This document shows, piece by piece, positions 1,044 to 62,423 of a stretch of 64,000 nt of DNA. This DNA comes from Eledone cirrhosa (Eukaryota): contig OZ024757.1 in assembly GCA_964016885.1 (NCBI GenBank), forward strand, positions 16,120,001 through 16,184,000. The letters are read 5' to 3'. Under the pieces are notes generated by a model that searched no databases, was not told the origin of the DNA, and saw only the letters and a program-made list of their open reading frames with translations. Each line of letters begins with the position of its first letter. The stretch's first letter is position 1. The position numbers and the translations under genes are program-made.

Positions 1044-1240
1044 ATTCAGGACCCCGATGGCGGAGCTCCGGCTGTTTCGACAGCTAGATCCGAATTCAGT
1101 TCGGATCTAGCTGTCGAACCGGCTGGAGCTCAGCCATCGGGGTCCTGAATCTTTTCATATTACCCACTCTACTACCCCAAGTATCGAGTACTTTGGTGGG
1201 TTATGGTCCACCTGGTATTTTACGACACCCTTTCTGATTA
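1044..1240 (+). mobile_element. Family A fold-back element (PLE terminus-like)
   Basis: Inverted repeat 1044-1150 with axis near 1097, then tail ttacccactctactacccc...gagtactttggtg ending in (TA)n; homologous to about 10 other copies in the window. Confidence 0.75.
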
Positions 1241-2218: not shown

Positions 2219-2350
2219 AAAGGGTCGTGAATCCGACGGCTGAGCTCTTGGCGTTTCGTTAGTTCCAAACTCGCTGTTGAAACGATAAGAACTCAGCCGT
2301 CGGAGTCCCGACTCTTTATAACAACTCCGAGTATCGAGTATTCTGGTGAA
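2219..2350 (+). mobile_element. Degenerate family A fold-back element
   Basis: ccgacggctgag...gtttc / gaaac...ctcagccgtcgg inverted repeat. Confidence 0.6.
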
Positions 2351-2354
2351 TAGC

Positions 2355-6273: not shown

Positions 6274-6274
<1 letters not shown>

Positions 6275-6311
<37 letters not shown>

Positions 6312-6514
6312 CATATATATATATACATACATATATATATATACACACATATATATATACATATATATATATACACGCATATATATATACACGCATATAT
6401 ATATACATATATATATATACACGCATATATATATACATATATATATATACACGCATATATATATACATATATATATACACATGCATATATATATACATAT
6501 ATATATACACATGC

Positions 6515-6547
<33 letters not shown>

Positions 6548-6960
6548 CATATATATATACACATGCATATATATATATATACACATGCATATATATATAT
6601 ACACATGCATATATATATATATATACACATGCATATATACATATATATATATACATGCATATATACATATATATATATACATGCATATATACATATATAT
6701 ATACACATGCATATATACATATATATATACACATGCATATATACATATATATATACACATGCATATATACATATATATATACACATGCATATATACATAC
6801 ATATATACACATGCATATATACATACATATATACACATGCATATATACATACATATATACACATGCATATATACATACATATATACACATGCATATATAC
6901 ATACATATATATACATGCATATATACATACATATACATATACACATGCATATATACATAC

Positions 6961-7007
<47 letters not shown>

Positions 7008-7283
7008 TATGCATGTGTATATATATATACATATATATATACACATGCATATATACATACATATATATACATATATATATATATATTTATATACATACAT
7101 ATACATATATATATACATACATACATATATACACATGCATATATACATACATATATATACATATAAATATATATATATACATACATATATATATACATAC
7201 ATATATACATACATACATATATACATATATATATATATACATATATATACACATGCATATATACATACATATATATATATATA
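6275..7283. repeat. Compound (TA)n/(TACA)n/atgc microsatellite
   Basis: Direct inspection. Confidence 0.95.
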
Positions 7284-7308
7284 CAGACGTATATATGAAA
7301 AGATTCAG

Positions 7309-7405
7309 GACCCTGACGGCTGAGCTCCGGCCGTTTCGACAGCTAGATCCGAACTACAGCGCCAGTATTCGAGCGGCGAGAATCTAGCTGAACTCATCAA
7401 GGGCC
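7309..7405 (-). ncRNA. Family A full-length hammerhead-like motif with long stem II (core C3 altered)
   Basis: Minus strand: ggccc(t)TGATGA gtt-cagctagat...atctagctg-tc GAAAC ggccggagctcagcc GTC agggtc. Confidence 0.6.
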
Positions 7406-7509
7406 ATAATCCATAAATGGGAAGACAGTCAAAGCAAAAAATCGAGTACTCTGGTGGGTTATCGTCTAGCTGGTTTTTACCATACCCTATCTGATATATA
7501 TATTAACAT

Positions 7510-7561
<52 letters not shown>

Positions 7562-7569
7562 ATATATAT

Positions 7570-7711
7570 AACGAAGGAGATGTGGTAAGGAACCAGATGG
7601 ACCATAACGCACCAAAGTACTCAATACTTAGGGTAGTAGAGTGGGTAATAGGAACGAGTAGGACCCCGACGGCTGAGCTGAAGCCGTTTCGTCGGCTAAT
7701 TCTGGACTAAA

Positions 7712-58956: not shown

Positions 58957-59134
58957 GTGTATATATATATATGTGTGTGTGTGTTTGTGTGTGTAAAAGG
59001 TAAACAGAAAAAACAACACAATCGGTACAGTATATGGAAGGAATATATTAGTTTGAAGCTTGAAATTGCAGGAAAAGAGTCATATATAAAAATCATCAAA
59101 ATGGATGCAATAAAAACCTATTATACCATTACTC

Positions 59135-59272
59135 ATCAAAGTACTCGATACTTGAGGTAGTATGGTAATATGAAAAAATTGGCACCTCGACGGCTGAGCT
59201 CCTGCTGTTTCGACAGCTAGTTCGGAACTAGCTGTTGAAACGACAAGATCTCAGCCGTCGGTGTCACGACAC

Positions 59273-59280
<8 letters not shown>
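59135..59280 (-). mobile_element. Degenerate family A fold-back
   Basis: cgacggctgag..tttcgacagctagttc / gaactagctgttgaaac..ctcagccgtcg. Confidence 0.7.
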
Positions 59281-59419: not shown

Positions 59420-59603
59420 TCGGTGAATTGGCAGTATCGATAGAGGGTTGGACGCCATGCTTTCTAGCATAGTTACGTTCCTTTACAGTCTGAGTTCAAA
59501 TCCCGCTGAGGTTAACTTTGCCTTTCATCCTTTACGGGGTCGATAAAATAAAGTACCAGTAATGTACTGGGTAATTTCTGGCCTTGTGCCTAAAGTAGAA
59601 ACA
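59420..59603 (+). mobile_element. SINE S1
   Basis: Match to the S1 consensus. Confidence 0.85.
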
Positions 59604-59605
59604 TA

Positions 59606-59954: not shown

Positions 59955-59998
<44 letters not shown>

Positions 59999-60003
<5 letters not shown>

Positions 60004-60192
60004 AGTAAGTAAGACCCCGACGGCTGAGCTCAAGCCGTTTCGACGGCTAATTCTGTACAGAATTAGCCGTCGAAACGGCTTGAGCTCAGCCGTCGGGGTC
60101 TTACTTACTCCTATTGCCCACTCTACTACCCTAAGTATTGAGTACTTCGGTGCGTTATGGCCCACCTGGTTCCTTACCACTTTTCCTTCGCT
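59999..60192 (+). mobile_element. Family A: perfect spacer-less palindrome (59999-60114) plus 3' tail, within (TA)n
   Basis: Axis ctgt|acag at 60056/60057. Confidence 0.9.
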
Positions 60193-60527
60193 ATATATAT
60201 ATATATATATATATAAGTCGTTTGGAAGCCTCGACAATGCAAATGGGTAAAGCTCCGGGTAACAAGGTCCGGTGGTGGAGAGAGAGATGTAAGTGGGTGT
60301 ACGTTGAGATGCGTGGTGTGTATAAGATGTGTGAGATGTGTAGAATGAAGGGAAGAGTATAAAGGATAAAAATAATAATAACAACACAAGAGAGAGTTAC
60401 CTTGGGAGAGATTTAATAGTCCCTATATATTTCGGATTCACATCCATCAACTGGGGGGTTTTTCCGGGGTGGGGGAAATGGTTGTCTGTCGGACAAGTCC
60501 GGAAGGCATCTTTCGCTGTTTGCTGAT

Positions 60528-60969: not shown

Positions 60970-61295
60970 CTGTTTCTACTTTTGCCACAAGGCCAGCAAT
61001 TATCCCAGTGTATTACTGGTACTTTATTTTATCGACCCCGTAAGGATGTAAAGCAAAGTTAACCTCGGTGGGATTTGAACTCAGAATAATATTATGATTA
61101 TGGCGGTGGATTGGCTCTGATCGATAGAGGGTCGGACGCCATGCTTTGACGCATAGAGATACGGCCCTTGCCATTCTGAGTTCAAATCCCGCCGAGGTTA
61201 ACTTTGCCTTTCATCCTTACGTGGTCGATAAAATAAAGTACCAGTAATACACTGGGTTATTGCTGGCCTTGTGCCAAAAGTAGAAACAATTATAA
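60970..61295. mobile_element. Inverted pair of SINE S1 (minus 60970-61086, plus 61102-61295)
   Basis: Match to the S1 consensus on opposite strands. Confidence 0.85.
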
Positions 61296-62199: not shown

Positions 62200-62259
<60 letters not shown>

Positions 62260-62263
<4 letters not shown>

Positions 62264-62383
62264 AAGGTCGACCATAACGCACCAGAGTACTCGATACTTA
62301 GGGTAGTAGAGTGGGTAATAGGAAAAGGGTCCAGAAATAGCCGTCGAAACGGCTTGAACTGCCGTCGGGGTGATGATTCTTTT

Positions 62384-62387
<4 letters not shown>
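62260..62387 (-). mobile_element. Internally deleted family A copy
   Basis: gaccataacgcaccagagtactcgatacttagggtagtagagtggg...gccgtcgaaacggc. Confidence 0.7.

Positions 62388-62423
<36 letters not shown>

Follow-up and report, generated by a model that had tools for sequence, protein, structure and literature searches.

EN+ Penelope-like elements (PLEs) have been described as carrying a single ORF in which RT is followed by GIY-YIG, together with a partial-tandem pseudo-LTR (pLTR), and their insertions as showing an adjoining inverted truncated copy, a tail at one end, a microsatellite target and a palindrome at the junction (PMC8557442, PMC3846280), all of which we also find in the repeat described here (family A). 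The published reading of palindromic PLE junctions is self-priming (PMC3846280), and both the formation of inverted ends and the regeneration of the pseudo-LTR are called open in PMC2377424 and PMC8557442. Work in vitro on the Anolis Poseidon PLE described an arrangement like that of family A, with two internal RT start sites bounding the tail, the tail at the start of the ORF region, and both strands of an AT-rich target being cut and extended (PMC11167929). The upstream pLTR is variably truncated, as in family A, in D. virilis Penelope, where the transcript starts inside this pLTR from a TATA-less internal promoter with Inr and DPE (PMC2377424). PLE hammerhead variants are type I motifs which, like that of family A, have a U3-A8 core, a G10.1-C11.1 pair, an enlarged helix II and a palindromic loop III, and lie close together on opposite strands (PMC4209133). 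In L1 twin priming, another cDNA is started from the second target strand and becomes end-joined to the first (PMC11702581), an arrangement similar to the one that we propose below.

Family A differs from each of these systems as they are presented in the accessible text of the same sources. Its tail is ~77 nt long compared with 30-40 nt in published EN+ PLEs, most of its copies are stubs of ~200 nt, and both of its arm ends fall within a single zone of 14 nt that shows a peak at one base and an additional G. PMC11167929 maps where RT starts, whereas the genomic copies of family A map where RT ends and how the products were joined. Unlike that of D. virilis Penelope, the putative start of family A is deduced from break positions and would lie inside stem II sequence. 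Helix II (54-59 nt) and helix III (5-6 bp) set family A apart from the PLE hammerhead variants, as does the absence of an Rfam match. The inverted piece in L1 is a different, upstream part of the RNA, whereas the arms of family A copy the same stretch from fixed sites. In the literature that we searched, largely open-access papers, we found no study that maps PLE junctions to the hammerhead or a start site, nor one that proposes a strong-stop model for these elements.

Materials and Methods

The genome is 3.0 Gb in size and rich in TA microsatellites. The sample consisted of 158 stretches of ten kb each, taken at round coordinates (1.58 Mb in total), eight of which adjoin the window; to these we added two sets of 29 young and 29 old copies that were picked by tail similarity alone and are therefore blind to break position. 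Structure was studied in thirty loci with the upstream ribozyme half and in 20 ORF-bearing copies. Breaks were mapped in 114 copies outside the window after hand curation (95 inverted, 17 non-inverted and 2 unknown), and 4 of 60 random tail hits were dropped from the counts (one at a stretch edge, three too decayed). Coordinates within the element are counted from the G of the hammerhead GAAA, set as 0, with stem II at approximately -1 to -56; break positions, being hand-curated, carry an error of about plus or minus 2 nt, and a larger one with long microhomology.

Results

Palindromic copies in the window

The window is the whole stretch of DNA that was analyzed, 64,000 nucleotides of Eledone cirrhosa contig OZ024757.1, and contains the following features of family A.

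59958..60000, no strand: (TA)n target, left flank of the 59999 copy
60001..60058, minus: inverted arm of the 59999 copy, from the proximal start site (CCT/ATT, +41) up to -17, without tail and without core
60055..60058, no strand: axis of the 59999 copy, a natural GTAC 4-mer common to both arms, with no loop
60055..60112, plus: direct arm of the 59999 copy, with the stem II 3' strand from -17 and GAAAC at 60072
within 60055..60112, plus: rest of this direct arm, with stem III, GTC and the stem I 3' strand
60113..60191, plus: PLE tail of the 59999 copy, between the proximal and distal start sites
60192..60215, no strand: (TA)n target, right flank of the 59999 copy
1044..1237, plus: old-subfamily palindromic copy, ends at about -16/-21, left end disrupted
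2219..2352, plus: decayed copy, inverted arm stopping at -1 and direct arm at about -20
7293..7440, minus: long inverted arm of the 7309 copy, 148 nt, with a complete hammerhead motif, TTGATGA core at 7394-7400 and end at -104
7441..7494, plus: tail fragment fused to the 7309 arm, this copy therefore being rearranged and no parent
7570..7711, minus: non-inverted copy, end at -21, without inverted arm
16272..16483, plus: palindromic copy, ends at -19/-19, with a 6-nt templated spacer
33857..34053, minus: palindromic copy, ends at -13/-17, with a 3-nt spacer
40852..40961, minus: short palindromic copy, axis outside stem II (+31/+20)
59101..59280, minus: old decayed palindromic copy, axis near -13
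62259..62388, minus: copy with an inverted arm (-17) much longer than the direct arm (about +30)

The 59999 copy is a perfect 116-nt palindrome (59999-60114) followed by a 79-nt single-copy stretch, the tail, with (TA)n runs flanking both sides. Its GTAC axis sits within a 14-nt quasi-palindrome (-22..-9) on the stem II 3' strand of the parent, and the parent type is found 2.2 kb outside the window at L051:7678-7813, and also in L194, L196 and L210. An earlier, sequence-only reading had described the copies at 59999, 1044, 16275, 33857 and 59135 as asymmetric palindromes with differing centers, which our analysis confirms, and we likewise observe that the arms of the named palindromic copies (1044, 16275, 33857 and 59135) hold GAAAC, stem III and GTC, with the core absent. 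The copy at 7309, which had been taken for the unrearranged parent, is actually an older-subfamily copy in which an inverted arm reaching -104 is fused to part of a tail, and the TGATGA core regarded as the parental type is a minor variant (2 of 37 rows, both from the same locus). That the axes differ between copies holds; that they all fall within stem II does not, as 61 of the 95 inverted copies have both ends there, and among window copies not listed in the earlier reading, 62259 breaks outside stem II on one side and 40852 on both.

Several other repeats are present in the window. Kilobase-long imperfect (TA/CA)n arrays (6274-7297 and 51200-52355) give rise to spurious long inverted repeats and miRNA-family matches, and a second very abundant repeat of ~185 nt, SINE-like by appearance and represented by 259 BLAST pieces in 1.64 Mb, occurs at 391-573, 37452-38109 (three in tandem), 39831-40013, 59420-59605 and 61104-61288. 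A search of the window with Rfam gave, among the best 150 of 424 matches, only microsatellite-type or palindrome-driven ones below the gathering score.

Identity of family A

Judged from its sequence, family A represents the hammerhead end of a PLE with RT and GIY-YIG, and comprises a pLTR and a 77-nt tail. A PLE origin had been proposed before, and the presence of an RT and GIY-YIG ORF and the anatomy of pLTR and tail bear it out. For example, at L085 a family A end is present on both sides, inverted, of RT and GIY-YIG coding sequence, in which YRDDG and VIY..YIG share one frame with one stop between them, and the RT region is matched at 98% or above in at least 40 places. Pfam gave 0 hits on the ORF pieces, and Atlas look-alikes of the coding region (at 0.94-0.96) carry RVT_1 in 42% and GIY-YIG in 31% of members. 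The cysteines of L085 comprise one between GIY and YIG, a CxC..C..C cluster in the linker and a later CxxC, compared with the EN+ PLE hallmark of two, of CCHH; the linker presumably points to the Neptune or Nematis clade.

The hammerhead region and tail lie immediately before the ORF, as a partial-tandem pseudo-LTR, in 7 of the 20 ORF-bearing copies fetched, and in full-length copies the tail reads on into the ORF, which means that a 5' copy of both start sites exists. Insertions are in (TA)n and have one or two fixed 3' ends per copy, after the tail or just before it. TA repeats follow the tail in 93 of 114 copies, and any target-site duplication would be masked by the (TA)n. An inverted arm is present in 95 of 114 copies and the tail at one end only, with none of 85 automatically located inverted arms carrying it.

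Two other classes of repeat were considered and rejected. We found neither the fixed TIRs nor the one internal consensus of a MITE, since centers vary and, on one side, the inverted repeat is followed by a tail that it does not include. Non-LTR retrozymes are head-to-tail tandem units, each with a complete hammerhead, in the account available to us (10.64898/2026.07.22.740005), whereas family A copies are dispersed, head-to-head and mostly without a core.

Copies of family A also occur next to one another. At L161:6193-6586, two insertions of different subfamilies lie back to back in opposite orientation in one common (TA)n, and this pair, window 7293-7711 and L051 likewise indicate that family A re-inserts beside itself. 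A related GIY-YIG-coding fragment adjoins old family A copies at L025:1-443 and L027:869-1292 (84% mutual identity).

The predicted hammerhead and its stem II

The motif has the core YUGANRA..GAAA..NUH and the three helices (stems I-III) of a type I hammerhead, and we therefore class it as a predicted type I hammerhead with the PLE-type U3-A8 core. This core, TTGA-N-AA, is present in 28 of 37 rows, 90% of cells in the alignment are paired, and G10.1-C11.1 occurs in 12 of 12 copies. The earlier description of a hammerhead with an extended stem II is upheld for a hammerhead-like motif: the proximal helix of stem II covaries, with two-sided changes between old and young copies in three stem II pairs (the sequences are related, and this is essentially one split), and predicted folding energies range from -9 to -23 kcal/mol. 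An Rfam search with the intact copy L194:1370-1510 returned no hammerhead match at E up to 10.

The predicted hammerhead cut is at +23, and arm ends show only weak scatter near +17..+25, so that a second peak at the cut site, which we looked for in the mapped copies, is not clear. In the central copy at L192, both arms stop at +22, beside the predicted cut, possibly a trace of a self-cleaved template. At L245:1440-1470, a long non-inverted copy has cleanly lost most of stem II through an internal deletion.

Position of the arm ends

Mapping of the copies outside the window demonstrated that arm ends are concentrated in a 14-nt zone (-10..-23) on the 3' strand of stem II, 10-23 nt upstream of GAAA, which holds the ends of 68 of 114 direct arms and 61 of 95 inverted arms. 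Counted over tail-bearing copies, with tail-less copies left out, the number of ends per nt at risk is 0.106 (direct) and 0.108 (inverted) in this zone, and 0.0015-0.023 in all others compared, i.e., tail, stem I, stem III, remaining stem II and upstream. Under a constant hazard, the observed scan statistic was never reached in 1000 simulations for each of the three sets. The most frequent end is -18 for direct arms (15) and -17 for inverted arms (21), with the same result in three separate samples, and the two arms halt at one template position, having been extended by ~135 and ~58 nt. Ends are clustered there in subfamilies that lack the local quasi-palindrome as well. Extrapolation from 56 tail-bearing copies in 1.58 Mb gives ~100,000 such copies genome-wide, with ~55,000 having both ends on the stem II 3' strand. 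Both uniform breakpoints and a fixed MITE, outcomes that would have spoken against the earlier mapping claim, were looked for, and clustered breaks with varied centers were found instead; the claim that breaks cluster in stem II consequently stands, narrowed from the hairpin axis to the 3' strand.

The two ends of a copy are coupled, both being in the zone in 53 copies, neither in 27 and only one in 15 (odds ratio 26). Of the 33 arms whose partner extends beyond -24, a set that pools three differently selected samples, 1 stops in the zone, compared with 61 of 85 others. This avoidance of the zone by the partners of long arms marks the stop as a property of the template molecule rather than a random stall, and implies that templates fall into a short class and a read-through class.

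These observations bear on two alternatives. Priming on both strands could be followed by stalling of RT inside stem II, or its displacement there by re-forming RNA, and by joining of the stalled cDNAs; the hairpin whose 3' strand contains the zone is indeed the most stable one nearby (-9 to -23 kcal/mol, with a covarying proximal helix), old-subfamily ends lie just before the GC-rich distal helix, and 8 of 17 non-inverted copies stop in the zone too. We nevertheless consider stalling rather unlikely, since it predicts neither a single-base peak with G bias nor the avoidance of the zone by the partners of long arms and in second passes through the 5' pLTR (0 of 7), and since the peak stays at the same motif despite predicted structures that differ between subfamilies. 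A nuclease cut in stem II, by host hairpin processing or small-RNA-guided slicing, could also produce a template 5' end at about -18, and would account for the coupling and for the read-through of uncut templates as well as run-off from an RNA 5' end does; it leaves both an extra G and a conserved Inr-like word unexplained, the cut predicted for the hammerhead itself is about 40 nt away, and we regard it as highly unlikely.

Some copies show further structure around the arm ends. A smaller cluster, at -32..-36, coincides with a self-complementary TTCGAA in the stem II loop of the old-subfamily copies L031, L037, L041 and L224, and the inverted arms of L190, L228, L229 and L113 have internal deletions across stem III or GAAAC yet end at -17. 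A foreign piece of 120-150 nt lies between two short arms, with ends in or close to the zone, at L168:9296-9590 and L102:7133-7410; in L168 this piece is part of the RT coding region of the element, which points to template jumping between the ends.

One folded cDNA or two primed cDNAs

The sequence-only reading had attributed the palindromes to a single tail-bearing cDNA that folds back and copies itself, independently at each insertion. Independent formation agrees with our data. Fold-back on the native stem II hairpin is largely refuted: such a cDNA must pass the loop, placing the end of the direct arm at -24 or beyond and that of the inverted arm on the 3' strand, and this geometry is seen in 0 of 95 copies. 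In addition, a self-copy cannot exceed its template, and in 33 of 95 copies the length of the inverted arm surpasses that of the direct arm by 5 nt or more, with such joints also present in raw reads. The catalytic core is missing because it was never copied, and not through deletion by snap-back.

Fold-back on stem II or on the small quasi-palindrome of the 3' strand has several observations on its side, namely the coupled ends, the 14-nt quasi-palindrome of the 59999 subfamily, at which 3 of 29 young copies have the expected junction, a small number of genuine private variants common to both arms, and a precedent in the self-priming already proposed for PLE palindromes in the accessible part of PMC3846280. 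Against this stand the two geometric findings given above, the absence of tail from the inverted arms, the non-inverted copies that end in the zone (8 of 17) and the equal clustering in subfamilies without a quasi-palindrome; shared variants and coupling would, furthermore, arise just as well if one RNA had templated two cDNAs. Taken together, one folded cDNA seems to us distinctly unlikely, and two primed cDNAs are the simpler source of the palindromes. Inverted arms begin at the proximal site, and the same site ends long copies with no inverted partner in view (L023, L025, L027, L035 and L044). The quasi-palindrome of the 59999 subfamily shows three junction outcomes, as a single crossover between two ends would give.

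A candidate RNA start in stem II

The stop zone centers on a conserved word, T(T/C)AGT, whose A(-18)GT is the same in all 12 intact copies, across subfamilies that differ in their loops, and is predicted to lie in unpaired sequence in the old subfamily but within a helix in several young subfamilies. We take this word to resemble the Initiator (Inr) consensus. By eye, no RGACGTGY-type downstream element was evident at the usual distance.

An extra G is associated with ends at this position. In whole-genome exact counts for the 59999 subfamily, 575 of the 1600 arms that reach -18 (36%) have a non-native base at -19 (G in 327, T in 191 and A in 57), the native C being kept in 1025. At a control position five bases downstream, likewise before AG, the counts are 620 for G and 370 for A (1.7 to 1), giving an odds ratio of 3.4 (p 4e-17) for the G bias at -19, a contrast that may be overstated because the control pools more subfamilies and more point mutations. 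Among hand-curated ends, a G follows 10 of 12 ends at -18 and 26 of 140 others, and many of the extra Gs can also be read as the base of the partner arm or as templated spacer. An extra G derived from the cap is given as a signature of complete reverse transcripts in the accessible text of PMC11702581.

The conserved start-like motif, the G bias and the partner pattern of long arms together favor an RNA 5' end over a stall. Four observations run against simple run-off: the peak is broad (-10..-23), the inverted arms have their mode at -17 rather than -18, most arms (1025 of 1600) keep the native C at -19, and in all seven full-length copies that reach the 5' pLTR, this pLTR goes on past -18, its upstream boundary lying anywhere from -56 to beyond -250. 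As simple run-off predicts that many pLTRs start at -18, a template jump, a circular template, as proposed for PLEs in PMC4209133, or an upstream start is needed.

Arm variants, later rearrangement and raw reads

The arms of one copy had been proposed to share private variants. Compared with the nearest arm of any other copy, the own arm was closer in 8, tied in 18 and farther in 20 of the 46 copies that remained after exclusion of indel-bearing and short-arm copies (two groups lost 1 and 2 more), which does not bear out sharing on the scale proposed; the words cited as private, taagtaaga and cgagtagga, are subfamily markers, the 59999 word being common to 15 of the 46 analyzed copies. True private variants shared by both arms numbered 2 compared with 0.02 expected in 15 young copies, and 11 old copies held 14 variants shared by the arms, 7 of them private compared with 2.7 expected. 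Variants are mostly confined to one arm (8 vs 2 shared in young copies, 78 vs 14 in old ones) and occur at approximately the rate of the tail, showing that the arms have not been homogenized. This pattern fits one RNA template with little later conversion, and does not separate the models.

The palindromes could alternatively reflect later center deletion and arm conversion in longer insertions, spread of a fixed palindromic MITE, or an assembly fault. Junction microhomology typical of deletions is present in some short asymmetric copies, and some asymmetric copies may indeed be later center deletions; the exact GTAC junction is common to at least five loci, which also speaks for this group. 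The one-arm variants speak against conversion, and the widely varying junctions, the tail at one end only and the tails of six GTAC-type copies, which have one shared non-majority base, in two copies, speak against a MITE. As to the assembly, raw Illumina reads (three samples, another study) contain 13 strand-switch joints on the parent, from a RAD library in which symmetric palindromes are probably under-seen, and one side of the joint lies at -22..-5 in 10 of the 13 and at -18 in three. The palindromic form is therefore no assembly artefact, and we judge this group of explanations extremely improbable. A drop in RAD read depth at L194:1449 coincides with an AATT word, probably the restriction site of the library, and was excluded as evidence.

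Discussion

Our analysis leads us to lean towards a reading in which two cDNAs, primed from the two nicked strands of the target, would have run off the capped 5' end of the RNA and then been joined. The copies themselves display insertion in (TA)n and one or two fixed 3' ends each. By analogy with what is described in PMC11167929, the endonuclease would nick both strands, with each 3'-OH priming RT at one site. The RNA would start at A(-18) of the Initiator-like T(T/C)AGT, within a small cluster of starts, and priming at the 5' copy of the two sites would then yield "strong-stop" cDNAs of ~135 and ~58 nt, often ending with a C copied from the cap. After the loss of a few nt, the two 3' ends would be joined either bluntly or through brief microhomology or a short spacer, and long arms would result from priming in the 3' pLTR, or a jump to it, with an intact stem II being read through.

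Minus-strand strong-stop DNA of LTR elements is a short run-off cDNA that results from priming near the RNA 5' end. We tentatively suggest, as a possibility, that PLEs make a retrovirus-like strong-stop DNA by two-site, two-strand priming near the capped 5' end, joining of the products giving stubs and a jump giving long copies; unlike in LTR elements, this would involve no tRNA primer or integrase. If true, the jump to the 3' pLTR would also regenerate the pseudo-LTR, and a start site inside stem II would mean that transcripts lack the core at their 5' end and undergo no self-cutting there. Under the same reading, stubs in which the start site and both priming sites are retained could serve as SINE-like sources.

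Such stubs may be misfiled as MITEs or miRNA-like hairpins. The ~100,000 copies are a record of RT stop points, which argues for two primed cDNAs over one folded cDNA, and in pointing to one base as the putative RNA start, these PLE stubs would offer a handle on how PLEs build their inverted ends.
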